Shown: positions 9,100 through 23,768, counted from the stretch's first letter. The stretch: 55,393 nucleotides of DNA from a bacterium (GCA_009927045.1 RFNT01000117.1:1-55393); one strand, 5' to 3'. Numbers and translations: made by a program. Notes: a model not told the origin generated them from the sequence alone.

Positions 9100-9982
9100 G
9101 AATAATTGGCTCAATTATCACCATCTCTATTACTTTAAAACGATCGCTGAGGAGGGCAGTGTCTCCAAAGCCGCTGAAAAACTTCGTTTGGGACAACCCA
9201 CCCTCAGCGCCCAATTAAAACAGTTCGAGGACCATCTAGGAATCCAGCTCTTTGAGCGCCAACACAAGAAGCTCATCCTGACTGAGCAAGGCCAAGTTGC
9301 TTTGGACTATGCTCGGAATATTTTTAAGATGGGGTCCGAATTGATGGAAGTTTTGAATGACCGGTTAGTCCCTCACAAAACTTCTGTCCAAGTTGGGGCC
9401 TTAGATAGTGTTGCCAAACAAGTGATAGTTCAATTGGCCAAGCACGCCTATAAGACCAACGATTGTTTGATTTCGCTGGTGGAGGGCAAGTCCGATGAAT
9501 TGCTGAGAGAACTGGTCGCTCATCGCATTGATATCCTTGTTACGAATTTTCTACCTTCTGGTATTCATGCCAAAGGGTTATTTCACCGAAGTTTGATCAA
9601 AAAAAGCATTGGAATTTACGCGGCTCCCACATTCAAGCGACTCAGAAAAGATTTTCCAAAGTCCATTACGGGCCAACCGATGATTCTCCCAACCTACGAC
9701 AGCAAGCTCCGTTATGATTTAGAACACTGGAGTCAGACACAAAAGATCGCTCTCAACGTAGTCGCTGAGAGCCAAGATATTGCTGTTAAGAAATTGATGG
9801 CTGTCAGTGGCATCGGCCTCATCCCGGCCGCAGCTCATGCGGTGACCCGTCAAGTTCTAGCGGGTGAATTAGTCGAGCTCGGGGAACTTCCTGGGATTTT
9901 TGAAGAACTTTTCTTGGTAAGCGCTGGCCGAAAAATTGAAAATCCCATTGCTGCGCAATTGATGAAGACTTTTCAAATATAG
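9098..9982 (+). CDS. nhaR: LysR-family transcriptional regulator, NhaR-like
   Basis: N-terminus WLNYHHLYYF..EGSVSKAAEKLRLGQPTLSAQLKQFE is typical of the NhaR subfamily; LysR substrate-binding domain follows. Confidence 0.8.
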   Translation: MNNWLNYHHLYYFKTIAEEGSVSKAAEKLRLGQPTLSAQLKQFEDHLGIQLFERQHKKLILTEQGQVALDYARNIFKMGSELMEVLNDRLVPHKTSVQVGALDSVAKQVIVQLAKHAYKTNDCLISLVEGKSDELLRELVAHRIDILVTNFLPSGIHAKGLFHRSLIKKSIGIYAAPTFKRLRKDFPKSITGQPMILPTYDSKLRYDLEHWSQTQKIALNVVAESQDIAVKKLMAVSGIGLIPAAAHAVTRQVLAGELVELGELPGIFEELFLVSAGRKIENPIAAQLMKTFQI

Positions 9983-10045
9983 TTTTTTTCAATCCACTTA
10001 ATTGAGTTTTTCCATTTTATTGGCCTTGCCCGCTTTTTTTATACT
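9979..10045 (+). promoter_or_regulatory. hpf promoter with four-box LysR operator
   Basis: ATAG-N7-CAAT-N7-ATTG-N7-CCAT (9979-10015), 24 nt gap, -10 TATACT (10040-10045). Confidence 0.65.
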
Positions 10046-10051
10046 GTGGGT

Positions 10052-10402
10052 ATGATTCAAATTACTTTTAAAAACTTGGAACGGTCTGAACTTGCTCAAG
10101 AGGCAGTGCAGGATCGTCTGCATGAGGCTTTAGAGCGCTTTCCGGACTTATCTCAGGCTAAGCTGCTTGTCACTCTTGCAATGGAGAACTCCCCTCGTCA
10201 AACCGGACCTGATCTGTTTCGAGTTAAATTGCGAGTCTCCGGCGGCAAGTACCATGGGGTTATTCTTGAAAAAGAAGCCTCTAGTTTGTATGCAGCCTTG
10301 GCGGAAGTGAACGAACATCTCTTGGAACGACTGAATCGGTTTGGTGATAAATTCCGAGTCAAGGCCAGAACACGAGAACGAAAACTTCTGATTTCTCAAT
10401 AA
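10052..10402 (+). CDS. HPF/RaiA-family ribosome-associated protein
   Basis: MIQITFKNLERSELAQEAVQDRL...SSLYAALAEVNEHLLERL matches the S30AE/HPF pattern. ATG 10052 preferred over GTG 10046. Confidence 0.75.
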   Translation: MIQITFKNLERSELAQEAVQDRLHEALERFPDLSQAKLLVTLAMENSPRQTGPDLFRVKLRVSGGKYHGVILEKEASSLYAALAEVNEHLLERLNRFGDKFRVKARTRERKLLISQ

Positions 10403-10553
10403 TCAGGGCTGACGGACATGCTCAAACTGTATTCACCCAAATTATTCAATAGTTTCCCGTGTATTCTCCACCACATTGAGAATACGACCAAATTTTCAGC
10501 TCTTTTCCGCTGAGTTCTTGTGGCCATTCTCAGCTAGCGAGAAGTGGCCTGTA

Positions 10554-10937
10554 TTATGCACTTTCTTCTGATAATTCTTGAACCTTTTGAAGAAACTCAT
10601 CCAGATCGATGGGCTTCTTTAGGATCACCGTATTTCCTTGCGCAATCGGCATTCTCTTTTCGGAGGTTGCACTGATGATTAAGGTGGGTAAGTCTTTGAA
10701 TTGATCTGAGTTATTTTTTTTATCAAGGAATTGCCACCCGTCCATAATGGGCATCATCAGGTCGAGGACGAGAACTGAAGGGCGGCTTTTCATGTGTACC
10801 AATAACTCCCAAGCTTCTTTACCGTTGCAAGCGGTATCCACATCATACCCCTCCAAACTTAAAGCCACTTTGAGTAGTTCTCGGATATCGGTATCGTCCT
10901 CAATCACTAAGAGTTTTTTTGATTTCTCGCTTCGCAT
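10554..10937 (-). CDS. Single-domain response regulator (receiver)
   Basis: LLVIEDD, LVLDLMMPIMDG, IISA, LKKPID; no output domain. Confidence 0.92.
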   Translation of the reverse strand: MRSEKSKKLLVIEDDTDIRELLKVALSLEGYDVDTACNGKEAWELLVHMKSRPSVLVLDLMMPIMDGWQFLDKKNNSDQFKDLPTLIISATSEKRMPIAQGNTVILKKPIDLDEFLQKVQELSEESA

Positions 10938-11010
10938 CTGTGGGTCTCAAAATAGCTCGCGTCTTGTTTTAGTAAAGCGAATTCCAAATTCTTTTTTTAA
11001 AGTGCGCTGG

Positions 11011-11043
11011 TTGCAAAATGAAAGATGGCCTTTCAGTTTGCAA
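11011..11043. promoter_or_regulatory. Putative enhancer (UAS) for a sigma-54 activator
   Basis: Inverted repeat TTGCAAAATGAAA-N7-TTTCAGTTTGCAA (12/13 match); each arm is a near-palindrome TTGCA-N3-TGCAA. Confidence 0.55.
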
Positions 11044-11085
11044 GATCTCAAACAACGAAATGATCGGTTCTGCTGCTCTGAGGTT

Positions 11086-11101
11086 GGGCACGGCTTGTGC
11101 A
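11086..11101 (+). promoter_or_regulatory. Sigma-54 (-24/-12) promoter
   Basis: GGGCACGGCTTGTGCA: GG(11087-88)-N10-GC(11099-100), close to TGGCACG-N4-TTGC. Confidence 0.6.
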
Positions 11102-11151
11102 CATCTGACTCCAGAACAAAAAAAACAACACTGCAGGGGGATTCTTTCGAG

Positions 11152-11382
11152 ATGACATCACCACATAAAAAAGACAAGCCAGTATGCCTCAATATTCTTT
11201 CGCACACGCTTAAAACACCCCTCACCAGTCTGAAGCTTGAGCTTCAACTCGCGCTGAGAAGACTGAGTGGGCAGGAAAAGCTTTCAGAGTCAGAGCATCA
11301 GTTAAAGGACTCGTTAGAGTTCTCACTTGAAAGAACCAATATTATGATCCAAATGATTTGTCTCGTTTTAGGGGAGGCCTGA
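11152..11382 (+). CDS. Stand-alone HisKA/DHp-domain small protein (76 aa)
   Basis: ILSHTLKTPLTSLKLELQLALRRL is an H-box helix with no ATPase or sensor domain. ATG 11152 follows CAGGGGG; the stop is 1 nt before the next ATG. Confidence 0.7.
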   Translation: MTSPHKKDKPVCLNILSHTLKTPLTSLKLELQLALRRLSGQEKLSESEHQLKDSLEFSLERTNIMIQMICLVLGEA

Positions 11383-11383
11383 T

Positions 11384-12784
11384 ATGCAAGTATTCATTAT
11401 CGATGACGAACCGGAAATTTCCCGCTCTATGGCACATATTATTGCACCCTTCAAGCTCCAGACGAGCTGTTTCAATCATACAGCGACTGTTTTATCAGCA
11501 ATGAAAGAGACCCCCCCTGATTTGGTCTTCTTGGATTACCGCCTAGGAAGTGAAAGTGGCCTGGCACTCATTCCACTCATTCTCCAAGAAAATCCTTCTG
11601 CCTATATCGTCATGATGACTGCTTTTGCTAGTTTTGAAGTCGCTCTTGAGGCCATGAAGTTAGGAGCTAAAGATTTTCTTAAAAAGCCGTTTTCGCTGGA
11701 GGAAGTAGAAATCATTGTGAAACGCTTCACCGAGCTTTCAAATCTGAAAAATCGTCTCAAGAATTTAGAAGAGGAATACGGGACGGATCAAATTCTTCTG
11801 GAATCGAAAAACCCGAAAGTGAAGGAACTGTTGAGGTTGGCAAAAAAGGCGGCTCAAAGTCAATCGGTAGTGCTCATCACCGGGGAAAGTGGTTCTGGTA
11901 AGACAGAGCTGGCGAAGGCCATCCACAGTTGGTCTTGCCGCCAACAGTTTCCTTTTGCGACCGTAGCCTGCCCTACATTAAGTGCTGACTTACTTGAGAG
12001 TGAACTGTTTGGACACGTCAAAGGGGCCTTTACAGGTGCAGTAGCCCACCATCAAGGACGTATTGCCAAGTGTGAGGGCGGAACGCTTTTTTTAGATGAA
12101 ATTGGAACCTTGCCACTCAGCCTGCAACCCAAACTGCTTAGATTCTTACAGGATTTTTCTTACGAACGGGTAGGAGATACCACAACTCATAAAGCAGACG
12201 TGCGTATTATTGCAGCGACGAATGCGGATTTGGCAAGTTTAGTCAGACAGGGAGTTTTTCGAGAGGACTTATTCTATCGGTTGAATGTGATTGAGCTCCA
12301 TTTACCGCCCTTGAGGGAGCGACCGGAGGACATCGAAGCGCTTTCACAGATTATTTTGCTCAAATTGTGCAAGAAACATGGGCGAGCCCCGATTCGCCTT
12401 ACTCAAACTGAACTGAGATCGCTTTCACAGCACCCGTGGCGTGGAAATATTCGGGAGCTCCATAACACTCTGGAGCGGGCCTTGATTTTTTCAAATGAAG
12501 GCGAGCCACTGCAAATTCATTATCAACCTTCTCTTCTCCCCACACAAAGCGCTCCCACAATTCAGGTTGGAGGTCCTCATACACTAGAAGAAGTTGAAAA
12601 GGCTCACATTGAAGCAACTCTCGCAAGGTTGGATAGCATCGAGGAGGTTTCACAAGCGTTAGGGATCAATCCCTCAACCCTCTGGCGAAAAAGAAAGACC
12701 TATGAAGAGCAAGCTAGATCCGTATTTCCTGGTGATGACTCCAAGGTGGGCACTCCCTCATCAGATCCGGGGACCATGCATTAA
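11384..12784 (+). CDS. Sigma-54-dependent response regulator (NtrC/AlgB-like bEBP)
   Basis: REC domain (IIDDE, FLDYR, KKPF), AAA+ domain (GESGSGKT, ESELFGHVKGAFTGA, TLFLDEIG, FREDLFYRLNV), Fis-type HTH (LGINPSTLWRKRK). Confidence 0.95.
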   Translation: MQVFIIDDEPEISRSMAHIIAPFKLQTSCFNHTATVLSAMKETPPDLVFLDYRLGSESGLALIPLILQENPSAYIVMMTAFASFEVALEAMKLGAKDFLKKPFSLEEVEIIVKRFTELSNLKNRLKNLEEEYGTDQILLESKNPKVKELLRLAKKAAQSQSVVLITGESGSGKTELAKAIHSWSCRQQFPFATVACPTLSADLLESELFGHVKGAFTGAVAHHQGRIAKCEGGTLFLDEIGTLPLSLQPKLLRFLQDFSYERVGDTTTHKADVRIIAATNADLASLVRQGVFREDLFYRLNVIELHLPPLRERPEDIEALSQIILLKLCKKHGRAPIRLTQTELRSLSQHPWRGNIRELHNTLERALIFSNEGEPLQIHYQPSLLPTQSAPTIQVGGPHTLEEVEKAHIEATLARLDSIEEVSQALGINPSTLWRKRKTYEEQARSVFPGDDSKVGTPSSDPGTMH

Positions 12785-13898
12785 CTGCATGCCACCAATA
12801 TTTCAGTACTGTGGCAATTCCCTCGGCTGCGTGACCATCCCCAAATGGGCTATTTCCTGTCCAAAACGGTTTTGAAGTGAATTCTCCTCGAAGAACAGCA
12901 TTTTGAAATTGAGAAATAATAGAATCCGCTTGAGTTCCCACTCGAGAGGCAAAGGGTGTTTCGAGTGCCTCTGGTCGTTCCGTATCTTCTCTCAGAACAA
13001 ACGTCCGAATTCCCAGTGAGGGCGCTTCTTCTTGTAAGCCACCGGAATCTGTCATCACGCAAGAGGCGTTTCGGAGGAGATACACCAGTTCACTGTAATC
13101 CAGGGGCGGAATAAGACTCACCCCCGCTTCCCCTTCTAGATTCTGATGCGCACTTTGAGAGACTAAAGGATTCGGGTGCACTGGGATCACAAATCGATAG
13201 TCCTTAAAATTCCGGGCTAAATATCGAATCGCCTGAAAAACACGGTCATGCGCCTCGCCAAAATTTTCCCGACGATGGGCTGTGACTAACACCAGTTTTT
13301 TGCCATTGAATAAAGGATCCAAGTGGGGAAACGATCGGTTTTTGAACCATTCCAACCTTAGTGCATCGATACTGGTATTCCCCGTAATGAAAGTGAACTT
13401 CTCCTCCACGCCTTCTCGCATCAGGTTTTTTCTGGAGCGTTCTGTGGGACAAAAGTGGAGATCGGCAAGGCATGAAAGCATTTTCCGATTCATTTCTTCC
13501 GGAAAAGGTGAAAAGTTTTTTCTAGTTCGCAGCCCTGCTTCGATATGGCCAATCGGAACCTTATGAAAAAAGGAGACCCAGGCTGCAACTACGGCAGAGA
13601 CGGTATCTCCCTGGACTAAGAGCAAATCCGGATTAAAATCCTGAAAAACATACGGTAATGCTCGCATGCATTCAGCAGAAATTGCTGAAAGGCTCTGGTT
13701 GGGCTGCATCAGGCCCAAATCCCAATCGGACTCCATTTCCAGATTTCTCAAGAGCTGATCCAACAAATCTCGATGTTGACCCGTCACACACACTTTTAGC
13801 TCAATCGAGTCCTCCTTTTTAAGAACGCGATAAAGAGGCGCTAGTTTGATGGCCTCGGGACGGGTACCCATCACCATCAGTACTCGAGCAGTGCGCAT
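12714..13898 (-). CDS. wecB: UDP-N-acetylglucosamine 2-epimerase (non-hydrolysing)
   Basis: GTRPEAIKLAP, TGQHR, VQGDT, HIEAGLRT, PFPEEMNR, TAHRREN, TDSGGLQEEA, TERPE. Start ATG 13898 behind GGAG. Confidence 0.95.
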   Translation of the reverse strand: MRTARVLMVMGTRPEAIKLAPLYRVLKKEDSIELKVCVTGQHRDLLDQLLRNLEMESDWDLGLMQPNQSLSAISAECMRALPYVFQDFNPDLLLVQGDTVSAVVAAWVSFFHKVPIGHIEAGLRTRKNFSPFPEEMNRKMLSCLADLHFCPTERSRKNLMREGVEEKFTFITGNTSIDALRLEWFKNRSFPHLDPLFNGKKLVLVTAHRRENFGEAHDRVFQAIRYLARNFKDYRFVIPVHPNPLVSQSAHQNLEGEAGVSLIPPLDYSELVYLLRNASCVMTDSGGLQEEAPSLGIRTFVLREDTERPEALETPFASRVGTQADSIISQFQNAVLRGEFTSKPFWTGNSPFGDGHAAEGIATVLKYWWHAVNAWSPDLMRECPPWSHHQEIRI

Positions 13899-13900
13899 TT

Positions 13901-15184
13901 TTAATTCTCCTCGATAAAATAATGTTTCACGACTGCTTCGGTTTGAGGTTTTCCAATGAAGCTGAATCCGGTGTCCAGTGGTCCGTGCAAATGAGGATCT
14001 ATTGAAAGATCCCAAAATACCACCCCCCGAAACCATTCCCACTTGGGTTTCCAAAAGGATTGAAGAAGCGCTTCATAGGCAGCTGCTTGATCCGAGATAT
14101 TGATAGGTCCCCTGTCCTCCCCGACATACCGGAACGGATTCACATAGCCTTTCGTCACACTTCTGAAGCCGACTTCCTTCAAAATAGCAACTTGTGGCTC
14201 CCCCACGACTGCTTCTATCTCAAAGAGCGCATTATCCAACTGAGAAGCATACCGATCCGATGCCTGTTTGAGGTCTTCAATGAGGTCACTCAGCCGCTCG
14301 GGCTTTTTTTGGTCTTCGGTGGCAAGCGATCGATACATATCGATGCCAATAGCATCGAGCCCCTTCCAGAATTCGACCAAGTTTTTCCAAACTTCTTTTT
14401 CTTTAGGATCAGTCCGATTGGCTAAATCTACGATCCGGTAGCGCCATCGAGCGAGTTCACCTCCAAACTCATCGATTCCCGACTCAGCGGCGATGATCTT
14501 GTCATCAGTGAAGTTGATGTCATACATAATCCTTGTCGTCGGGGGAAGCTTCGTACGGGCATAGGCCAGGAGCTTAACCCACTGAGCGGGGAATCCATGG
14601 GGGTACTCTTTCCACTGATCTTCAATGCCTACGGTCATTGAGTATAATTCAGCTCCGAGCGTAAACTCTTCAACTTTTGTCTGAGCTGAAAGTAAAAGAT
14701 AGATATCCAAATAGGTTTTAAAAGACTCAAACCAGGCATTTGGATTCACTGGCTGAATATTTCCATGCCACCACTCCTTTTTAGTTCCATCCGGTAGCAC
14801 TTCCACAAAAGGTGTCCGTCCATTGGAATCGACCACAAAAAAGATAGGACGCATCCCGACTGTCATTTCCTTGCCATGAATATACTGTATCAGCCGGGTG
14901 AGTCGTTTTCGTTCGTCGGATCGATTTTCTGGAGGAGTCATCGGCTTTAATTCGGAGTTTTTTGGATGCGTCATGATCGCTCTAGGAGTCAACACCAGGT
15001 GCCTCACTCCAGCCTGAAAGGCCCTATCCACCATTTCTTGAGCTGCTGTTTTACTCCCACCGTCGGCAGAAGCATCGAAAATATACCCATCTGCCTCTGT
15101 GAGGGTGGCACCCTTCACGAGGGGTATGTCCAGTGCGAATCCGATTGCGTGCACACCCAGGATGAAAAATAACATTGCTTTCAT
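13901..15184 (-). CDS. Secreted TIM-barrel glycoside hydrolase, GH113-like
   Basis: Signal peptide; WFESFKTY, FTLGAEL (acid/base Glu), LDAIGIDMY, ILKEVGFRS (nucleophile Glu), GVVFWD, GKP. Pattern of GH113 / clan GH-A. Confidence 0.7.
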   Translation of the reverse strand: MKAMLFFILGVHAIGFALDIPLVKGATLTEADGYIFDASADGGSKTAAQEMVDRAFQAGVRHLVLTPRAIMTHPKNSELKPMTPPENRSDERKRLTRLIQYIHGKEMTVGMRPIFFVVDSNGRTPFVEVLPDGTKKEWWHGNIQPVNPNAWFESFKTYLDIYLLLSAQTKVEEFTLGAELYSMTVGIEDQWKEYPHGFPAQWVKLLAYARTKLPPTTRIMYDINFTDDKIIAAESGIDEFGGELARWRYRIVDLANRTDPKEKEVWKNLVEFWKGLDAIGIDMYRSLATEDQKKPERLSDLIEDLKQASDRYASQLDNALFEIEAVVGEPQVAILKEVGFRSVTKGYVNPFRYVGEDRGPINISDQAAAYEALLQSFWKPKWEWFRGVVFWDLSIDPHLHGPLDTGFSFIGKPQTEAVVKHYFIEEN

Positions 15185-15187
15185 AGT

Positions 15188-16942
15188 TTACCTCTCTTGT
15201 TCTGAAAAAAGATTGACTGCGTAGATTGCTCCATAAACACTTTGAATGTACTGACCCTCAAACCGCTTCCCGGAATCAAAGAATTCTCCGCGAACATGCA
15301 CCCAACGTTGGCTCTCAAACATCCCTGAACTTAAATAGGCAACATTTCTCTTGGGATCGTAATAGCCATATTCCAGGTCCACACTCACTGGAATACTTTC
15401 TTTATAGGTAACTAATAGAGTCCCCTGCAGTCGCTGAGCCGTTTGGTAAATGACCAACCGAAATTTTACGTCTCGGCTTTCGCCGAGATAAACTCCGCTG
15501 ATATCGGAAATGGATGTGCGGTTTTCATCTGTAAAGGCAAGATAGGAACGTGTTTTTTTTCCTTCAATTGGCGAAGTAAGCTTTGAAGTAAAGAAGGTTC
15601 CCTGAATCCGCTTTTCCCCCGCTTCTGTGGTAATTACAAATCTCATAAAGAATACTTCGTTCACGGGATTAGAAAAGTTCGGGTCGGTCACTTCATAATG
15701 GACGGCCTCCCATTTTTTTTGTTTGCTATTGTAGAGCACATGAAAAAAGCTGAAATCAGCGGACACTTCTCCCCCGTATCGCACTGAAAGGCCCATAAAG
15801 AACTTACCGTTCCCGATGTGCACTAGATTGATCAAACCGGGTTTATCTCGTACCGTCACCTCATAAGAGCCCTCAATTTCCTCAGTCAGGCCAGCAACCA
15901 GCAAAGAAATTCGGCTAACAAACTTCTTCATTTCCTCAGCTGGTTGATTGAGGCCTAGCTTTTGATACTCCTCCATTAATCGATCAGATATTTCCCCAAG
16001 TAACATCAACTGAGATTCTGGAATCGGCTTATCTCGATACAGGGTGATTATAAAACTTCCTAGTTCGGTTATTTGGCTGGATAAAAGCGCTGGGATCAGC
16101 TCTTTGGCCAACGCAATATCAAAAACGTTTTCCTGCGTGAGAATCTTAGAGACAATCGTGATGATCAAATAACCGGGTGCCGTCAGCACATTAAATGGGA
16201 TGGTTTGATTCAGCGTTTTTAGGTTAGTCGATAAAACAATTCCCCATTGGAGAAAGGTTTCAAGTTCAGTGTGTTGGGTCGCTCTCAACACTTCTTCACT
16301 GAGAAATCCCACAATGGCTTGAATCGCCGTCATTGAGCGAACGCTCTTCATGATTCCTAACATTTGATCGGAGCTGATTTCATTTTTTATTTTGATCAGA
16401 CGCTGTACACTGCTCGCCTGTAATTGCTCAAATGCCTCCACGACATAGGCCTCACTTTTGAGATCGATGATTGCCGCCAAGCTAAAGCATGCCCGCTCAT
16501 ACCAATGGAGCAATCCCTCTCGGTCGGTTACGAGGACCAGTAATTTCAAGTGTTGGCCCGCAATCTGATAGCGCGTTGAGTTTTCACTCCAACTAAAAAA
16601 GTGACTTATGAATTCTGTGGGTTCCTGATCCAATCGAAGCCACTTGATGCCTTGCCGTGTGAGGACCCAGCCCAGTTTTTTCACAACCTGATTGGATATT
16701 TCATCCACACCATGGCTGACAGCAATCTTTTCCAACTCATTCAAAATTTGGATATAGGGAAAAAGTTGCTCTTTCGCGGTGAATGTTGGGGCAAATCGTT
16801 CAATATCTTGCACCACGACCAAAAAATCAGGCCGCCCTATTTTTGCCTTTTCCAGAAGGGCTTGGGGTGATGCAAGTTCATCACTGAACAAAGGAAGTGA
16901 AAGAATGGCTGCCGCTAGTGTAAGGACTTTCAAACTCTTCAT
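15188..16942 (-). CDS. Secreted hypothetical protein (helical N-terminal part, beta-rich C-terminal part)
   Basis: 584-aa ORF; ATG 16942 overlaps the upstream stop (ATGA); signal peptide MKSLKVLTLAAAILSLPLFS; no family recognised. Confidence 0.8.
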   Translation of the reverse strand: MKSLKVLTLAAAILSLPLFSDELASPQALLEKAKIGRPDFLVVVQDIERFAPTFTAKEQLFPYIQILNELEKIAVSHGVDEISNQVVKKLGWVLTRQGIKWLRLDQEPTEFISHFFSWSENSTRYQIAGQHLKLLVLVTDREGLLHWYERACFSLAAIIDLKSEAYVVEAFEQLQASSVQRLIKIKNEISSDQMLGIMKSVRSMTAIQAIVGFLSEEVLRATQHTELETFLQWGIVLSTNLKTLNQTIPFNVLTAPGYLIITIVSKILTQENVFDIALAKELIPALLSSQITELGSFIITLYRDKPIPESQLMLLGEISDRLMEEYQKLGLNQPAEEMKKFVSRISLLVAGLTEEIEGSYEVTVRDKPGLINLVHIGNGKFFMGLSVRYGGEVSADFSFFHVLYNSKQKKWEAVHYEVTDPNFSNPVNEVFFMRFVITTEAGEKRIQGTFFTSKLTSPIEGKKTRSYLAFTDENRTSISDISGVYLGESRDVKFRLVIYQTAQRLQGTLLVTYKESIPVSVDLEYGYYDPKRNVAYLSSGMFESQRWVHVRGEFFDSGKRFEGQYIQSVYGAIYAVNLFSEQER

Positions 16943-18732
16943 GGCAGACTCCCTTCGATGGGCGGCAGGCGCAGAAGAGCCGGCGCTTGAGCAGTCCATT
17001 CTTCCATATTGATAAATCGATACCCCAATCGCTGAATTCCTTGAATGAGATCAACGATGTGTCTTCCATCTCCTGGATAGTCACCCAGCCCCTCCTCTTG
17101 GTTAGGCAAGACCAGAACTGGGTGGACAAACAACGAGGCCCAGTGATCCCTCAGAACACGATTCCTTCGAGCGGAATCCAACATTTGCGTTGGATTTTGT
17201 GTCATATAGACCTGTTCATTCAGAAACGGCTGAATATTTCCTAAGTTCTCTGGAAGGAGTCGTTGGCCATACACATCTCCCCAGATTTCGTATGGAAACA
17301 TCTGCCCACTGGGTAGGAGATTTTCAGGGTAGCTCACACGGAGATCATTCAAGTATCGCCACCGTTGAGCAGCACCCGCAGCACCCGCAGCACCCGCTTG
17401 ATTATATGTTAAGCTGAGCGGAAGGCGCTGTGCTTGCTCTGCTTGGAACGGGAAGTACGTTACCCGCCCGATTCCCCAAGCAAATAGTTGGCCGAAGAGA
17501 ATAAAGTCCAAGGGTGAAGCCTGGTAATGAGGGGTTAACCAAACAGAAGGCAGAACTCCCGCCTTTTCAAAGAGGGTTTGGCCATCTGTTAAACGATTTA
17601 CTACATAGGAAATGGAATCTTCCGGAATGGGCCGATTGTTGACACCATCCCAAAATTCAAAATCATCCCCTGACATGCCATTAAATGGATTTTTTTGCTT
17701 TCCATATTGGTGAGTGACCCCATGAAAAATAATACTGCCTCCCGACTTTTTTGAGTCATTCAGAAACTCAAGAAAGAATGGCCTTTGAAGTAGCGTTACC
17801 ATACTTTCTGCTGGATCATCGACTCTGGATAGAAGAGGGTCTGAAAAGATAGGGATCACCGAGATTCCGAATGGGATTCCACATTTTTCAAAGGTTGTTT
17901 TATAGGCGTTGAGTTGCCACAGCGGGAGATTTGGATGAATGTCTTCAAAGCGTACAATTGCGGGTCGTTCCTGGGGGTAGAGCGGAGGTTCCTGCAGCAA
18001 ATCAAAAAGCAGATCCGTAAGAATGAGATATCGGTCCTTTTCATGCATAAAAGAAAAGGGACTATCTGCAATGAAAAACCTGTTTTTATTTACAATCACA
18101 TATGGGGCTCTTTGCCCAGTGCTAGAATGTTCAGCCCAAGCAAGCACATGGCTTTCTGTTGAGTCCGCCTGTTCTACTTTCAACAAAACCATCTCAAAGG
18201 CGGCTTTGAATTGATCCGGATGTTTTCGATCAAATTCCCCATATTTTTCGAATCGTTCCCCTTTGTATTCAAAATTTTTGAAAAATCCGGGTTTGCCCTT
18301 CGGGTCTTTTTGATCCCAATCGAGTTTTGACAGTCCTTGATAGGATACATTCCACAATCCAAGCAAAACCTCGGGAGCTAGCTTCCAAATGTGATAGCCC
18401 ATCCAAAGCACTTGCTTTTGAGTGGCCACAAAGTCTGACAAGAATGCTGGGGGAATACTGGAATTGAAGTGCGTGCCCAAGTAGACCAGCGCTTCACACT
18501 TTTCAACTTGCCCTGCGCGGTACTTATGAATAGGAAACACAATCTGCTGCCAACGAGGGAAATGCCCGAGCAGGTTTTGAAGAAAGAGAGCATGGATTCT
18601 TCCAATCGGGACACCCCCGCTCTGACCATCCACTTCATCATAAACGATTTGAATGCAAGGGGTTGGATTGAGTCCGTAACTCACTTGAGAAGTCAGCATA
18701 ACCATCCCGAAAATGAACGCCACTTTCATCAT
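16939..18732 (-). CDS. DUF2334-family polysaccharide deacetylase-like secreted protein
   Basis: Signal peptide; NodB-like metal motifs IVRFEDIHP, HGVTHQ, WLTPHYQAS; LLPENLG; LFVHP. Confidence 0.8.
   Translation of the reverse strand: MMKVAFIFGMVMLTSQVSYGLNPTPCIQIVYDEVDGQSGGVPIGRIHALFLQNLLGHFPRWQQIVFPIHKYRAGQVEKCEALVYLGTHFNSSIPPAFLSDFVATQKQVLWMGYHIWKLAPEVLLGLWNVSYQGLSKLDWDQKDPKGKPGFFKNFEYKGERFEKYGEFDRKHPDQFKAAFEMVLLKVEQADSTESHVLAWAEHSSTGQRAPYVIVNKNRFFIADSPFSFMHEKDRYLILTDLLFDLLQEPPLYPQERPAIVRFEDIHPNLPLWQLNAYKTTFEKCGIPFGISVIPIFSDPLLSRVDDPAESMVTLLQRPFFLEFLNDSKKSGGSIIFHGVTHQYGKQKNPFNGMSGDDFEFWDGVNNRPIPEDSISYVVNRLTDGQTLFEKAGVLPSVWLTPHYQASPLDFILFGQLFAWGIGRVTYFPFQAEQAQRLPLSLTYNQAGAAGAAGAAQRWRYLNDLRVSYPENLLPSGQMFPYEIWGDVYGQRLLPENLGNIQPFLNEQVYMTQNPTQMLDSARRNRVLRDHWASLFVHPVLVLPNQEEGLGDYPGDGRHIVDLIQGIQRLGYRFINMEEWTAQAPALLRLPPIEGSLP
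17369..17397. repeat. In-frame 9-bp tandem repeat (GCAGCACCC x3)
   Basis: Three perfect copies encoding AGAAGAAGAA in the DUF2334 gene. Confidence 0.85.
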
Positions 18733-20090
18733 AGACTCACCCGAGATGGTGCCATTGCAGTCCCAAAGTTTTTAGGCAGTTCATGCTGGGTTTTTACCCA
18801 GAGGGAGGGCTTCTGCATCCACTGACTCATCCAGTAGTTTTTCAGTGCGCGAAAGCTTGCAAGACCATTCACCCAGACCGAAATGGGATACCTAAGAATC
18901 ACCCAAAGAGCCTGGCGACGTCCATATATCTTTGCTGCCGAAGTGGCACGGTGAAAGAGCCGATTGAGAATCACCAGGATATTACAAAAAAGTAGCGCCT
19001 TCAGAGCCCGTGGGTTGGGGGCCAAGTCAATGACCCCCAACAAAAGCGTCGGCAAGAGCAGGAATCCGCAAAATCCAGCACTGTTTCCCAGGAGAGCTTT
19101 TCTGTCTCTGAGCAGGAAGATTCGATTGGTCAAATTCCCAAACCAACCTAAGTGTGTTGGAGATTGGAGTGTAATCCCCTCAGTCCATCTCGCCTTTTGA
19201 CGAACAGCCATTCCTACCGAATTGGGAAAAAACTCACGGGTAGCTACCCAATTTTTTTCACCAGAACGTTCCTGGTAAAAATGGCACGCAAACACCTGGC
19301 GCAGGCCCAGACTAAAAGCTCTGATACCGAGTAAGTAATCCTCCGTTAAACACTGGGACTCGAGTAGCTTTCCTCCCGTGGCTTGAACCATTTTTTCCAA
19401 AGCAGCACGGGTGATTGCCATTCCGACCCCAGCAGATGGCACGGACGCACAAAGCCGATTCCGACACAAAAGTTCTCGGGTATGCGCTTCTGCAAATTCA
19501 TCCATATAAGACGCACCTACAGAAAATGAGCGAGGAACCTGCAGCGAAAAGACAGGAAGCTGAATGAAGTCGTAGTCATTAGAATATTTATTGATCAAAG
19601 CCAAAGAGCGGGGATGGATGATGTCTTCGGCATCCTGAAACACAAAAATATCAAAAAGAGACTTGGTTTCCTTTCGCAGTTGATCCACCATTTCATTGAG
19701 TAAATGGCCTTTGGAGGTCGGACCCGGAATAGAACTCAGCAGTATCCGGATTTGGGGGTTCTGCAGCTGTGCTTGGGTGACTGCTTGTAAAGTGGGCCAG
19801 TCATTCGGATAACATCCCACAAATATTTGATAGTTTTTGTAGTGAATGTGCTGGCTATTCCCCAACAGCATTTGGGTAATAACACTCTCCTCACGCCATG
19901 TTGGGATGAGAATAGCGATTTTCCGTTCTGGTTGCGCTTGTATTTCAAACCAGTCTTTTTGTGTGAGAGCCTGAGGGCGTATTTTGTGCCAGAAAATGAG
20001 ATAATCAATCCAGAGGCTGTCTAAATTCCAGACCAAGTAAACCAGTGACAAACTGATGAAGGCCCATTGAAATCCAGTAAGCTCAGTCAT
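18729..20090 (-). CDS. NfrB-like processive GT2 glycosyltransferase (short form)
   Basis: AILIPTWRE, FVGCYPND, GPTSKGHLLN, QDAED (DXD), FIQLPV, YMDEFAEAH, VPSAGVG, LTEDY, REFFP, VRQKARW (QxxRW), C-terminal TMs and WVKTQH. These follow the NfrB family pattern. Confidence 0.88.
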   Translation of the reverse strand: MTELTGFQWAFISLSLVYLVWNLDSLWIDYLIFWHKIRPQALTQKDWFEIQAQPERKIAILIPTWREESVITQMLLGNSQHIHYKNYQIFVGCYPNDWPTLQAVTQAQLQNPQIRILLSSIPGPTSKGHLLNEMVDQLRKETKSLFDIFVFQDAEDIIHPRSLALINKYSNDYDFIQLPVFSLQVPRSFSVGASYMDEFAEAHTRELLCRNRLCASVPSAGVGMAITRAALEKMVQATGGKLLESQCLTEDYLLGIRAFSLGLRQVFACHFYQERSGEKNWVATREFFPNSVGMAVRQKARWTEGITLQSPTHLGWFGNLTNRIFLLRDRKALLGNSAGFCGFLLLPTLLLGVIDLAPNPRALKALLFCNILVILNRLFHRATSAAKIYGRRQALWVILRYPISVWVNGLASFRALKNYWMSQWMQKPSLWVKTQHELPKNFGTAMAPSRVSL

Positions 20091-20782
20091 AGAAATCCCC
20101 CCACTGTTGCAAGCAGACGGAATCCTTCAAAACCCGAATCTTGGAACGAAATCACATGAGCAGCTGAGACAGCAGCACAAAAACTCTGTTCACACACCCT
20201 CAAGCGAACACTGGGGCGAATTCCCGATTGGATATTAGATGGGCCGCCTCCTTGCCAGAGCGACCAAAATGGCTCGAGATAGAGATCCGTAGACCCATTT
20301 GCAAGCATCTGAACTTGGATGCCCACACGAGAGAGCGCCTGAACACCCCAAAAGGCGTCTTCCTCTACCGCCATCAACACTTCGGAATAGGGCTCCAAAA
20401 AAACTGCCCAAAGGGATTGGGGTGCTAATTTCCAACTTAAAGTGTCGCCGAAGGCCGTTAAAAAGCGCCATTGGGATTTTGTCTTCATGCGATGTTCAGC
20501 AAAACACCTGAGATGTGGCACGCTCCAGGAAACTCCGGGTGCAAAGTAAGGCTCCCAATTTCCTGTGGGACCCACCGACATTTCTGCCCCCGCTTGAAGA
20601 AAGGGTTGAACACTTTGTTCGGGAAATAATGACATTCGTGCAAACGTACCGGAGTGAAATGGCTGAACTTGAGCCTCCAGAACACCTTCGCTATAAAACT
20701 CGGTTCTCACTGCAGCAGCGCTTCCCTCTATTTGATAGATCGCTAGAAACCCAAGGAGTATTTTTTTTACGTGGTTTGCCAT
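20087..20782 (-). CDS. Putative outer-membrane beta-barrel protein, first gene of the glycan operon
   Basis: Signal-like N-terminus, then alternating aromatic/hydrophobic strands (PYFAPGVSW, FLEPYSE, DLYLEPF). Stop overlaps the GT2 ATG. ATG 20782 chosen because TTG 20800 lies inside the sigma-54 promoter. Confidence 0.6.
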   Translation of the reverse strand: MANHVKKILLGFLAIYQIEGSAAAVRTEFYSEGVLEAQVQPFHSGTFARMSLFPEQSVQPFLQAGAEMSVGPTGNWEPYFAPGVSWSVPHLRCFAEHRMKTKSQWRFLTAFGDTLSWKLAPQSLWAVFLEPYSEVLMAVEEDAFWGVQALSRVGIQVQMLANGSTDLYLEPFWSLWQGGGPSNIQSGIRPSVRLRVCEQSFCAAVSAAHVISFQDSGFEGFRLLATVGGFL

Positions 20783-20795
20783 CAAAAGAAGAGAG

Positions 20796-20811
20796 TGCAA
20801 CCCCTATGCCT
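20796..20811 (-). promoter_or_regulatory. Sigma-54 promoter of the glycan operon
   Basis: Minus strand AGGCATAGGGGTTGCA (GG-N10-GC with TTGC). Confidence 0.65.
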
Positions 20812-20843
20812 GAGGGGATTGCGCCGCAAGTGCTGAGACAAAA

Positions 20844-20877
20844 CTGCTTTTTGCAACTTCTCCATTTCATGTCGCGA
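20844..20877. promoter_or_regulatory. Putative shared enhancer (two 13-bp sites)
   Basis: CTGCTTTTTGCAA (20844-56) and TTTCATGTCGCGA (20865-77) resemble the 11011-11043 arms and are centred between the divergent sigma-54 promoters. Confidence 0.45.
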
Positions 20878-20911
20878 TCCGGAACAGGATCAACTGAGCC
20901 CAGCACCCCTC

Positions 20912-20927
20912 TGGTATGTGGGTTGCA
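20912..20927 (+). promoter_or_regulatory. Sigma-54 promoter of the host-attachment/DUF2267/ftsH operon
   Basis: TGGTATGTGGGTTGCA (GG-N10-GC with TTGC). Confidence 0.65.
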
Positions 20928-20940
20928 CGTTGTCCCCCAC

Positions 20941-21483
20941 ATGGCTCGACGAAAAAAAACTCGAAGTGGGGCAGAAATTCGAAGCCTAGTAGGTGCCAAA
21001 AGATTTCAGGAACCCATCTGGTGGCTCGCTGTTCTACACAAAAATCAGGTCCAAATTTTTTCCTTCTCACCCATTGAGCATCAACTCTGCCCATTATGGA
21101 AACGAGAAGAAAAAGACTTTCACGACCTCATCGCTCGTCGGTTGCGAGGGTCTGCCGGACGAACTCAAGAGAGTTTTTCCTGGAGTGCAGGAGGTCATCA
21201 AACAGGACATCGCCGCCACAGTTATTCCTCGGCTACACCCCCCAAAAAAAGAGCCTCTCAAACTTTACTAGCGGCAGGAGCGCATTTTGTGAAACAGGAA
21301 TATAGAAAGCGAAAATTTGATCATCTCGCTCTCGTCGCTAACCCTGCTGTTTACGGAACCTTCAAAGAACTCTTAGGCGCCCGTTTAGCTAAAAAAGTCA
21401 CTTTACATGCTCCAGCACTTCCCAATTACTTAAGTTCCCGTCAGCAGGAAAAGCAGTTGCTTTCCTTGATGGCAACCGAATGA
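20941..21483 (+). CDS. Host attachment protein family (AtsE/baeRF-like)
   Basis: WWLAVLH..VQIF, SAGRTQES..RHSY, FDHLALVANPAVYGTFKELL..KKV. ATG 20941 lies just downstream of the sigma-54 promoter. Confidence 0.7.
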   Translation: MARRKKTRSGAEIRSLVGAKRFQEPIWWLAVLHKNQVQIFSFSPIEHQLCPLWKREEKDFHDLIARRLRGSAGRTQESFSWSAGGHQTGHRRHSYSSATPPKKRASQTLLAAGAHFVKQEYRKRKFDHLALVANPAVYGTFKELLGARLAKKVTLHAPALPNYLSSRQQEKQLLSLMATE

Positions 21484-21934: not shown

Positions 21935-23768
21935 ATGAAAAAACCCCAGCATCTCAAGAGTCCAATCCCCTTTTTTTTGGTGATTTTCGGCATCTTTCTT
22001 TTTTTAAATGTGTGGGTTAGCAAACAAGTCACTACTGCTATCCCCTACAGCGAGTTCCTCACACACGTTCAAACAGGAAAATTGAAGCAAGTGAGGATTT
22101 CCAAAGACACCCTGCTGGGAGAACGACTTGAGCCGGACTCTTCAGGCAAACGACTCTTCACCACCCAACGAGTTGACGATCCGAGTTTGATAGGCTTACT
22201 GCGAGAAAAAAATATCAGCTTCACTGCAGAGCCAGAAATGGGGGTCTGGATGAAAATCCTGCTTTGGTCGATCCCACTCGTTCTTTTGATTCGATTCGGT
22301 AGCCTCCTCTTCCGTCAAGGATTGGGAGATTCCCGCAGGGGCATTTTGGGCCTCACTCGGTCACGAGCAAAGCTTTTTGTAGAAAAAGGATATCACGACA
22401 ACATTTGAGGATGTAGCCGGCGTGACCGAAGCAAAAGAAGAGTTGAGAGAAATCGTACAGTTCTTGGCAGATCCTCGACAGTTCACTCGGTTGGGTGGCC
22501 GAGCGCCCAAAGGCGTTTTGTTAGTCGGTCCTCCTGGGACGGGAAAAACCCTTTTAGCCCGAGCGATTGCGGGAGAAGCTAAAGTCCCTTTTCTTTCTAT
22601 CAATGGCTCGGAATTTATTGAAATGTTTGTGGGCCTCGGAGCCGCCCGAGTTCGTGATTTATTCCAACAAGCTCGCGACCTGGCCCCTTGTATCTTATTT
22701 ATTGATGAAATTGATGCCGTAGGAAAAGTGCGCGCGGGAGCAATCCTGACTGGCGGCAATGAAGAAAAGGAACAAACCCTGGGACAACTCCTTGCAGAGA
22801 TGGATGGCTTTGATAGTTCTAAGGGCGTAATTATTTTGGCAGCTACCAACCGTCCTGAAATTTTAGACCCAGCCCTTTTAAGAGCTGGCCGTTTTGATCG
22901 CCAAGTACTTATTGATAATCCCGATCAGCGAGGCCGACTGCAGATCTTGCAAGTCCACTGCAAAAACATTAAAGCAGATCCCCAGCTTTCGCTTGAGCAT
23001 ATTGCTTCCCTCACTCCTGGATTTTCTGGTGCTGACTTGGCGAATTTGGTCAATGAAGCAGCTCTCTTTGCTGTTAGACGCAACGGGGATTTGGTCACGG
23101 AAAGTGATTTCGACCATGCCATTGAGCGGATAGTTGCTGGATTAGAGCAACGCTCAAAAATTATGCATCCGGAAGAAAAGCGACGGATTGCTTTCCACGA
23201 AATGGGACACGCAACCGTTTCCCTCACTCTCGGACCTTCTGAGAAAGTCCATAAAGTCAGTATTGTCCCTCGGGGACTCGGGGCCTTGGGCTATACTATC
23301 CGCCGCCCCACAGAAGACCGATACTTGATGGACGAGCATGAAATGCTCAAAAAAATTGCAGTTCTTTTAGGTGGACGTGCGGCCGAGGTTCTTTTTCTAA
23401 AATCAACGTCCACTGGCGCAGCAGATGACTTAGTCAAAGCAACCGATCTCGCTCGAGCGATGGTCACTCGATTTGGGATGAGTGAAGCCATCGGGCTCAG
23501 TGTTCTTGAAGAAAAAGAACTAACTTATTTAGCCTCCCCACAGCTTCCTCGAATTTCCCCCTACAGTGAAGAAACCGCAAAAAGTATCGATCACGAAGTC
23601 AAAAGTATTTTAGAAAAGGGATTACGTTTAGCTTTGAAAGAACTCAATACCTATAGAACCTTCATTGAACAGGGAGCTCTCGAGCTGATTCGAAAAGAAA
23701 CGTTAGAGGAAGAAGATGTAGTTCAGTTGTGGGATCAGCACGTTCAATCTGCAAAAGTCAGTGCATAA
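21935..23768 (+). CDS. ftsH: ATP-dependent zinc metalloprotease FtsH (frameshift in A-run 22383-22387)
   Basis: TM + IPYSEFL extracellular domain; removing one A gives [21 protein letters not shown]; [38 protein letters not shown]. Confidence 0.93.

Follow-up and report, generated by a model that had tools for sequence, protein, structure and literature searches.

The DNA analysed here, called the window throughout, is a stretch of 55,393 nt (GCA_009927045.1 RFNT01000117.1:1-55393) from a 2.39-Mb metagenome-assembled genome of 263 contigs that is 95% complete. The named genomes closest to it, metagenome-assembled as well, are those of a 'Bdellovibrio sp.', a 'Bdellovibrionales bacterium' and a 'Proteobacteria bacterium', and the host is a freshwater bacterium of the Bdellovibrionota. 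On the minus strand of the window lies an operon of six genes, designated P1 to P6, which probably encodes a synthase-dependent polysaccharide pathway related to the Nfr system on which infection of Escherichia coli by phage N4 depends. In the order of transcription (positions are those of the window; aa, amino acids) the genes are as follows:

20087-20782, minus strand: P1, 231 aa from the ATG chosen in the initial annotation of this locus; N-terminal signal-like leader and a predicted barrel of about 12 strands; proposed export pore.
18729-20090, minus strand: P2, 453 aa; NfrB-type processive family 2 glycosyltransferase (GT2) synthase of the inner membrane, without a C-terminal MshEN domain.
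16939-18732, minus strand: P3, 597 aa; periplasmic protein with an N-domain of no known family (residues ~20-257) and a DUF2334 domain (258-540); proposed de-N-acetylase.
15188-16942, minus strand: P4, 584 aa; periplasmic member of a small unnamed family, with a signal-like leader; proposed scaffold.
13901-15184, minus strand: P5, 427 aa; periplasmic hydrolase of the clan GH-A type, a distant GH113 relative; proposed polymer-trimming enzyme.
12714-13898, minus strand: P6, 394 aa; WecB, the cytoplasmic non-hydrolysing UDP-GlcNAc 2-epimerase, which makes uridine diphosphate N-acetylmannosamine (UDP-ManNAc).

The initial annotation described six minus-strand genes joined by ATGA overlaps or gaps of 2-3 nt, and this arrangement was found on inspection of the junction sequences. 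Stop and start codons overlap as ATGA at P1/P2, P2/P3 and P3/P4, while 3 nt separate P4 from P5 (TAA-ACT-ATG) and 2 nt separate P5 from P6 (TAA-AA-ATG). Purine-rich runs resembling ribosome-binding sites precede P2 to P6; P1 is the sole gene of the operon without one. In a hydropathy scan P4 and P5 began with hydrophobic leaders and P2 showed membrane segments; P6 had neither. The leaders of P1 and P3 are legible in their N-terminal sequences.

The operon could be recovered from independent data. The stretch was found in freshwater metagenome runs from several studies, and all of its 8,069 bases are covered by a single contig of 21,343 bases (X5) from another study, with 83 differing letters and one in-frame gap of 9 nt. 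As this independent contig covers the whole stretch, the operon is not an assembly artefact, and the recurrence of the same gene set, in register, in many genomes means that it is more than chance. The fragmented state of the source, a metagenome-assembled genome in 263 contigs, would invite the explanation that the six genes are chance neighbours or an assembly error with no joint function. This explanation is already contradicted by the spanning contig, by a gene order that is kept in many genomes, including complete ones in a single contig, and by the stop/start overlaps at three of the five junctions; we consider it hardly credible.

P2 matches the Pfam family Glyco_tranf_2_3 (E 9.7e-39) and gave seven NCBIfam matches, the best six of which form the PRK14716/PRK11234/PRK15489 'N4 adsorption protein B' group; the remaining match, to HpnI, is marginal (E 8.7e-4). 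The best model, NF011305, was matched with 357.6 bits (cut-off 409), and the NfrB model NF008411 with 287 bits (cut-off 1170), model positions 6-474 of 723 being covered. Over 475 aa, P2 is 31% identical to residues 10-482 of E. coli K-12 NfrB (E 2e-69), and its DxD (DAED), TED and QxxRW (RQKARW) motifs align with those of NfrB. Comparisons with E. coli BcsA and PgaC by BLASTP gave E values above 1, and no sequence relative of P2 was found in the PDB. Hydrophobic segments lie at residues 10-28 and 332-380. The protein ends at the position of NfrB residue 482, the point at which NfrB continues into the linker to its MshEN domain. Pfam detects no MshEN in P2, whereas E. coli NfrB shows this domain, and the MshEN-like matches of the genome are confined to two other open reading frames (ORFs) of 576-588 aa. 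P2 is the only NfrB-like GT2 found in its genome. At the other end of the operon, P6 passes the cut-off of the wecB model TIGR00236 (376.4 bits vs. 210) and matches Pfam Epimerase_2 with E 1.8e-93. Two further wecB-family genes were seen in the same genome, on contigs C157 and C147, with 455 and 213 bits on TIGR00236.

For P1 neither Pfam, even at E<=10, nor NCBIfam returned a family. Its AlphaFold model, calculated from a 15-row alignment, shows about 12 antiparallel strands after a signal-like helix, with a predicted local distance difference test score (pLDDT) of 87.6 and a predicted template modelling score (pTM) of 0.76. Comparison of this model by VIA-align gave Z scores of 13.8 for AIDA-I, 13.7 for both BrkA and FapF, 13.6 for KdgM (4pr7), 13.2 for VhGalP, 12.3 for NanC and 11.1 for PgaA (4y25), and the top Foldseek match was FapF (E 1.6e-6). 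With matches to 12-stranded outer-membrane barrels, P1 is predicted to be a barrel of this kind. The oligosaccharide porins of the KdgM/NanC kind are 12-stranded monomeric barrels of about 210-230 aa with a family signature in the sequence; the Z scores of P1 to them are tied with those for autotransporters and FapF, and Pfam gave no family for P1 at E<=10.

P3 consists of two domains. The C-terminal one (residues 258-540) is a clear DUF2334 domain, with 127.6 bits against a Pfam cut-off of 26 (E 6.2e-37), while for the N-domain of about 240 residues Pfam gave no family even at E<=10. Among 20 P3 homologues, C26 and C79 are invariant, and R261, E263, D264, H337, H341, H402 and H537 nearly so. 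The pattern of an acidic pair, H-x3-H and further His residues resembles the Asp-His-His metal site, with catalytic base and acid, of CE4 enzymes; P3 could not be aligned with any CE4 enzyme. We presume that PssB of Listeria and YdaL of Bacillus subtilis are also members of DUF2334. In the Protein Atlas the N-domain fell next to DUF2194 clusters (scores 0.90-0.91, 130-140 shared features), a weak lead. Contigs of two further runs (X5 and X6) are without 9 nt at window position 17369, where P3 has an Ala/Gly repeat around residue 455; this is an in-frame length polymorphism of three residues in the AGAAGAAGAA loop, a region that is also variable and gapped in the P3 alignment.

P4 matched no Pfam or NCBIfam family. 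The AlphaFold model (pLDDT 86.4) comprises a leader, an alpha-solenoid (residues 26-353) and two up-and-down beta-barrels (358-466 and 483-580). In VIA-align the two barrels matched small barrels, avidin-like ones among them, with Z 10-12; for the helical part the matches were designed repeat proteins with Z 9-11.7, a range that is common for repeats. Among 1.84 billion proteins, the P4 family counts 176 representatives at E<=1e-3, nearly all of 560-620 aa; a further search with a wide alignment brought up only close relatives already known, and the best Protein Atlas score (0.77) offered no lead. Foldseek of the whole model against the PDB listed lipid-transfer proteins, polysaccharide lyases, repeat proteins and large toxins with TM scores of 0.08-0.24, which we judged to be chance or repeat matches. 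We dropped a polysaccharide-lyase-like reading of P4, as an (alpha/alpha) toroid plus beta-sandwich, as the VIA search gave separate small barrels and a generic solenoid. A complex prediction for P4 (21-584) with the P3 N-domain (21-257) returned no answer (score 0.00) and is evidence neither way.

P5 scores 60.4 bits against the Pfam GH113 model (cut-off 27, E 2.4e-16) and begins with a hydrophobic leader at residues 1-25. A profile of 17 P5 sequences matched the solved GH113 beta-mannanases 5ylh, 4cd6 and 3civ with E values of 2.8e-14 to 2.6e-13; across the GH113 beta-1,4-mannanases, 7dv7 included, the range was 2.8e-14 to 1e-9 and both barrel halves were covered. The single sequence reached E 2.2e-4 to the mannanases of the PDB. 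E179 and E337 do not vary among the 17 homologues, and in 5ylh their counterparts are the Glu of GCEM and of FVEAG, so that both catalytic Glu positions are conserved; in chain 5yli, the Glu at the second catalytic position is an Ala. We take these residues to be the acid/base and the nucleophile. P5 differs from the GH113 mannanases in a very low identity, in about 100 additional residues, in its signal-like leader and in its location in a biosynthetic operon.

These analyses bear out the individual calls of the initial annotation, which had listed a beta-barrel-like first protein, a GT2 with DXD, TED and QxxRW motifs, a DUF2334 gene, a 584-aa secreted protein without a known family, a GH113-like hydrolase and wecB as the sixth gene. 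It had also asked whether the GT2 clusters with NfrB and whether the genes are conserved together; the P2 comparisons answer the first question in the affirmative, and the loci described below do so for the second.

To examine conservation, stretches of about 20 kb surrounding P4 matches were taken at 22 loci in 19 genomes of the Bdellovibrionota. P4 is present in these by selection (one locus, L065, has a weak P4-like match only), and some loci come from the same genus and are not independent; several belong to complete genomes of 3.3-4.2 Mb in a single contig. Full-length P3 lies directly upstream of P4 in 19 of the 22 loci and a free-standing P3 N-domain of 253-261 aa in two more, so that P3 or its N-domain precedes P4 in 21. 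A full-length P2 homologue and P5 were each found in 17 loci. An iterated hidden Markov model detected P1 in 16, in 15 of which it abuts the start of the GT2 gene; the contig of L014 begins inside the GT2 gene and P1 is not visible there. Inside the locus wecB was seen in 12 cases, and all six genes occur together in 11.

Profile searches of 401 sampled genomes of the phylum (threshold for P5, E<=1e-10) gave a similar picture. P3 was found in 72 genomes, P5 in 48, P4 in 34 and all three in 28. P3 is present in 47 of the 48 genomes with P5 and in 31 of the 34 with P4, the three exceptions being weak or partial P4 matches. Five further loci (L079-L083) were selected as positive for P3 and negative for P4. 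Three of them (L079-L081) comprise a GT2, one or two ORFs of about 340 aa without a known family, a P3 of 921-987 aa with an N-terminal extension, wecB and a P1-like match, divergent in L081; P5 is present in two of the three. In L082 and L083, P1, GT2 and P3 occur with neither P4 nor P5 nearby. Apart from a weak TGase_elicitor match, Pfam gave no family for the accessory ORFs of L079-L083. The stable core of the system is P1, GT2 and P3 with wecB, and P4 and P5 are frequent accessories.

Some loci deviate from the common arrangement. Second copies in two complete genomes (L056 in G165 and L067 in G351) consist of P3, P4 and P5 with no adjacent GT2. A reduced set, the P3 N-domain followed by full-length P4, occurs in L069 (G191) and L070 (G134), once with a 252-aa GT2 fragment; P3 N-domain and P4 stay paired, then, even where the DUF2334 domain has been lost. 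The NfrB-like GT2 of L080 (13101-15668, G298) has 855 aa, with a C-terminus about 370 residues longer in which Pfam found no domain and which could be a different regulatory module. In L011, from the same genus as the window (9608-10902, G003), the P5 homologue is broken into ORFs of 83 and 345 aa, and single in-frame stops were seen in the P5 or P3 matches of a few other genomes (G018, G261 and G217); such broken genes could reflect decay or sequencing errors.

Relatives of the system were also detected beyond the phylum. A tblastn search with P3 against 72,556 plasmid-type records returned matches in 143 of them (136 from Ralstonia, four from Bacillus and one each from a member of the Comamonadaceae, Burkholderia and Streptomyces), and at least 80% of P3 is covered in 138. 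On the megaplasmid of Ralstonia solanacearum OE1-1 the gene for a 'DUF2334 domain-containing protein' (578 aa) stands together with those for a 'glycosyl transferase family protein' (698 aa), a 'bacteriophage N4 adsorption protein A', wecB, a 105-aa ORF and a 295-aa ORF. The Comamonadaceae plasmid carries wecB, a glycosyltransferase of 515 aa, a 100-aa ORF, DUF2334, a TPR protein of 1034 aa and DUF4434. By BLASTP, P2 is 34% identical to the Comamonadaceae glycosyltransferase (E 7e-77) and 29% to that of Ralstonia (E 3e-61), each of which is about 40% identical to E. coli NfrB. The P3 homologues show 31% (Ralstonia, E 1e-82) and 30% identity (Comamonadaceae, E 1e-77), and the WecB proteins of the two clusters are 42% and 39% identical to P6. 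The Comamonadaceae GT2 is, like P2, about as short as the glycosyltransferase and membrane part alone. Just upstream of the DUF2334 gene both clusters have an ORF of 100-105 aa (L086 9441-9758 in Ralstonia, L087 9662-9964 in Comamonadaceae) with no counterpart in the window. The Streptomyces plasmid has wecB and a GT2 divergent to a full-length P3 homologue of about 30% identity; this GT2 is not NfrB-like (E 0.008). The Bacillus matches, which cover the DUF2334 domain only, were set aside; one neighbourhood was inspected and had no polysaccharide context.

The Ralstonia and Comamonadaceae clusters thus share with the operon a clustered NfrB-like GT2, WecB and full-length P3 homologue. They differ from it in keeping an NfrA or TPR-barrel protein, in Comamonadaceae also a DUF4434 protein, and in being without P1, P4 and P5, which found no match among the proteins of these clusters by BLASTP. 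In the six operon proteins Pfam detected no TPR, NfrA_C or DUF4434, and BLASTP of P1 and P4 against the NfrA and TPR proteins of E. coli, Ralstonia and Comamonadaceae yielded nothing significant; P4 in particular shows no similarity to NfrA. E. coli YbcH is a DUF4434 protein and is related to the Comamonadaceae one (E 2e-17). P5 is not detectably related to YbcH/DUF4434 (BLASTP E 0.9; hhalign probability 1.5% and 0.3%, with shallow profiles) or, by BLASTP and hhalign with equally shallow profiles, to the 295-aa ORF of Ralstonia. From these sequence comparisons we conclude that the triad of NfrB, WecB and P3 is older and wider than the six-gene cluster. The comparison also supports the view that in Bdellovibrionota P1 and P4 stand at the place of NfrA, and P5 at that of DUF4434/YbcH, in line with the non-homologous replacements that the initial annotation had proposed. 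Its claim of an unusual gene set has to be narrowed: P1, P4 and P5 are unusual, and the DUF2334 partner recurs in Nfr-type clusters of Betaproteobacteria.

How the operon relates to characterised systems can now be outlined. In E. coli, infection by N4 needs NfrB, NfrA and, of the genes for enterobacterial common antigen, only WecB, and a ManNAc-based polymer was proposed (PMC8669472); NfrB homologues are often linked to wecB (PMC8669469). The operon resembles the E. coli system in its homologous synthase, with 31% identity and the same motifs, in the WecB link and in the combination of an inner-membrane synthase with periplasmic proteins and an outer-membrane barrel (PMC8669469, PMC8669472). 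It differs in a synthase without the cyclic-di-GMP-binding MshEN domain, in the 231-aa P1 and 584-aa P4 instead of NfrA, in P5 instead of YbcH, in the addition of P3 and in having wecB inside the operon. With MshEN, NfrA and YbcH missing and the curated NfrB cut-off not reached, the locus is a variant of the Nfr kind and not the Nfr system itself. The genomic survey of PMC8669469 mentions acetyltransferase and diguanylate-cyclase neighbours in its main text, where the word 'deacetylase' is absent. Among the main texts searched, no literature pairing NfrB with DUF2334 was found, nor did publications from 2022 onwards on NfrB or the receptor glycan of N4, or searches on Bdellovibrio exopolysaccharide, on Bdellovibrio with epimerase and on N4 adsorption in Bdellovibrio or Ralstonia, bring up a paper on such clusters. 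By its recurrence in the sequences compared, the DUF2334 protein appears as a regular companion of Nfr-type clusters that those main texts leave undescribed.

The same logic is known from Pga and Pel systems, in which a GT2 or GT4 synthase is combined with deacetylase and glycoside hydrolase activities in the periplasm, a scaffold of helical repeats and a barrel in the outer membrane. In the operon, deacetylase and hydrolase candidates are separate proteins of other families (DUF2334 and GH113-like), and barrel and scaffold are separate too, with a smaller barrel; P1, P3, P4 and P5 have no detectable sequence relation to PgaA, PgaB or BcsZ. Deacetylation makes the polymer cationic in Pga/Pel-type systems (PMC6307706). 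The Pss exopolysaccharide of Listeria monocytogenes has a beta-1,4-ManNAc backbone, a PssB deacetylase and a PssZ hydrolase (PMC6307706) and is a precedent for a deacetylase-dependent ManNAc polymer. It is different in that its synthase is not NfrB-like, PssC being described as IcaA/HmsR-like (PMC4125290), in the Gram-positive envelope without an outer-membrane part and in control by cyclic di-GMP (c-di-GMP) via PssE.

Taken together, we regard it as likely that the operon encodes a synthase-dependent pathway of the Nfr type for a ManNAc-based polymer, which would probably be partly de-N-acetylated. WecB (P6) would convert UDP-GlcNAc to UDP-ManNAc in the cytoplasm, and P2, as a processive GT2 of the inner membrane, would polymerise the sugar and translocate the chain. 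In the periplasm, P3 would strip part of the N-acetyl groups and P5, as a retaining hydrolase, may trim or release the chain. P4, with its alpha-solenoid and twin small barrels, may act as a scaffold, and P1 would provide the exit through the outer membrane. The WecB reaction is established, and so is the coupling of polymerisation and translocation in BcsA-type processive GT2 synthases. The role suggested for P5 follows the analogy with BcsZ, the C-domain of PgaB and the PelA hydrolase; the pairing of P4 with P1 would correspond to the split AlgK/AlgE and to the fused NfrA, PgaA and BcsC. That the backbone is manno-configured is suggested both by the beta-mannanase-type fold of P5 and by the repeated linkage to wecB.

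The initial annotation went further and saw a complete synthase-dependent ManNAc pathway. A synthase, modifying and trimming enzymes, a helical-repeat protein and an outer-membrane barrel are indeed assembled in one operon, judged by predicted folds and families, and families, folds and co-conservation speak for this part of the claim. The ManNAc monomer, deacetylation by P3, the roles of P1 and P4, export through P1, a secreted or cationic product and every catalytic and transport step are what we infer from them.

A number of results weigh against this interpretation, first on the side of export. The fold matches of P1 are tied within about 1 Z among porins, autotransporters and FapF, with no specific match to an exporter. 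The exporters PgaA, BcsC and AlgE are 16- to 18-stranded, and a 12-stranded P1 would be narrower. One may ask whether there is any free exopolysaccharide at all: the product could be a glycan tethered in the periplasm or to the outer membrane, or P3 and P5 could act on envelope glycans of the prey, with P1 and P4 serving another envelope function. The narrow P1 without a specific exporter match would fit such a reading, and the phylum consists of predators, whose known deacetylases, according to the title of Lambert et al. 2016, act on prey peptidoglycan. The P3-P4-P5 copies without an adjacent GT2 (L056, L067) and the loci with P3 N-domain and P4 only (L069, L070) point the same way. Against it, the NfrB-type synthase and WecB are translationally coupled and conserved with the other genes, and in Ralstonia and Comamonadaceae, which are not predators, GT2, WecB and P3 form the same triad next to a canonical NfrA exporter. 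We therefore consider a cell-bound or prey-directed function quite improbable.

Other objections concern the composition of the system and its chemistry. P2 scores under the curated cut-offs of all NCBIfam models of the NfrB group. P4 and P5 are dispensable in some relatives, as 22 of the 72 P3-bearing genomes have neither, and variant clusters carry other proteins without a known family. The search of sequencing runs turned up no RNA run that carries the stretch. The designation of P3 as a deacetylase draws on the Pfam family, its presumed clan and the motif pattern; neither the single sequence nor a profile of P3 found a relative in the PDB, the hhalign comparison with E. coli PgaB reached a probability of 0.5%, and the literature searched contained no characterised DUF2334 member. 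The operon copy of wecB is one of three wecB-family genes in the genome, so that it is not the sole possible source of UDP-ManNAc nor exclusive to this pathway, and wecB lies outside the 20-kb locus in 10 of the 22 cases. For E. coli itself, a ManNAc-based Nfr product is postulated, and the NfrB product is undefined, in PMC8669472.

Much of this would also suit a pathway with the same machinery and a different chemistry, that is, a GlcNAc-based polymer or heteropolymer, with P3 acting on O-acetyl groups or only binding glycan and P5 cleaving non-mannosidic bonds. The undefined NfrB product, the spare and displaced wecB genes, the distance of P5 from GH113 (E 2.2e-4 to mannanases of the PDB by single sequence) and the lack of a characterised or solved P3 relative among those found all leave room for it. 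Arguing for ManNAc, on the other hand, wecB is close-packed with P5 at a distance of 2 nt and recurs beside P3 homologues in Bdellovibrionota, Burkholderiales and Streptomyces, and the characterised relatives found for the P5 family are beta-1,4-mannanases, which fits a manno-configured backbone. On balance we hold a different chemistry to be unlikely, and the ManNAc-based pathway remains the reading that we prefer.

Possible regulatory elements were seen at both ends of the operon:

20796-20811, minus strand: sigma-54-like -24/-12 motif AGGCAT-N5-GTTGCA, starting 29 nt upstream of the P1 ATG; candidate promoter of the operon.
11384-12784, plus strand: gene for an NtrC-type sigma-54 activator (response regulator) with Response_reg, Sigma54_activat (E 3.6e-63) and HTH_8; convergent, its 3' end overlapping the end of wecB by 71 nt.

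The motif has two mismatches to TGGCAC-N5-TTGCW, with the GG and GC in place. The whole window contains 32 such matches, compared with 30.5 expected from shuffles, and a match alone means little. In two loci of the same genus (L010 and L011) its core, AGGCAT..GGTTGC, stands unchanged at an identical distance from the ATG, with flanks that have diverged and a P1 of only 35% identity; the strict sigma-54 pattern occurs in none of 13 other loci. A start site at the position predicted for sigma-54 would leave a leader of a few bases before P1. The genome has rpoN. A 461-aa ORF, matching the activator gene in size, occupies the same convergent position after wecB in L010 and L011. Sigma-70-like promoters (6 found, 10.9 in shuffles) and terminators (11 and 11.1) show no excess. 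No c-di-GMP domain was detected in the operon, P2 being without MshEN. Control of the operon by sigma-54 is a tentative proposal, to which we would give a little less than an even chance, and it is possible, judging from its position, that the NtrC-type activator regulates the operon. We infer that sigma-54 and the neighbouring activator would take the place of c-di-GMP.

Other genes flank these elements. On the plus strand at 10747-11382, an ORF of 211 aa has a weak HisKA match (E 2.3e-5, below the cut-off) and no ATPase domain and ends 1 nt before the start of the activator gene at 11384; it could encode a sensor partner that is truncated or of an unusual type. The divergent neighbour at 20515-21483 (plus strand) has matches to Host_attach (PF10116, E 9.3e-8) and to baeRF family 12 over residues 207-296; as listed, this ORF overlaps the 5' end of P1, and its real start is probably further downstream. 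An FtsH-like gene seems to be split into an ORF of 157 aa with FtsH_ext (21935-22408, plus strand) and, 13 nt on and in another frame, one of 448 aa with AAA, AAA_lid_3 and Peptidase_M41 (22422-23768, plus strand), which could reflect a frameshift, faulty assembly or a genuine split.

A broader picture would have the operon stand for an exopolysaccharide of the Bdellovibrionota at large, in which poly-ManNAc is turned into a cationic ManNAc/mannosamine adhesin by DUF2334, leaves the cell through a new two-part module of P1 and P4, unrelated to the TPR-barrel exporters of all synthase-dependent systems studied so far, serves attachment to prey or surfaces and is governed by a sigma-54 activator and not by c-di-GMP. 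As a whole we find this picture doubtful. If it were true, work on it would give a first defined chemistry for DUF2334 and for the Nfr polymers of E. coli and Ralstonia.

It was not until 2021 that the Nfr pathway was recognised, and the polymer that it makes has yet to be defined (PMC8669469, PMC8669472). That an NfrB-WecB core travels with a conserved two-domain DUF2334 protein in at least two phyla gives DUF2334 a testable function and predicts post-synthetic modification of Nfr-type polymers. The swap of the canonical TPR-barrel exporter and the DUF4434 protein for unrelated parts informs on how interchangeable components are in synthase-dependent secretion. According to the epsSMASH preprint (10.64898/2025.12.21.693542), Bdellovibrio is the one core genus of activated sludge in which most species lack a detected exopolysaccharide cluster. 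The six-gene system is a candidate to fill this gap, and it could bear on how predatory bacteria adhere to prey or surfaces.

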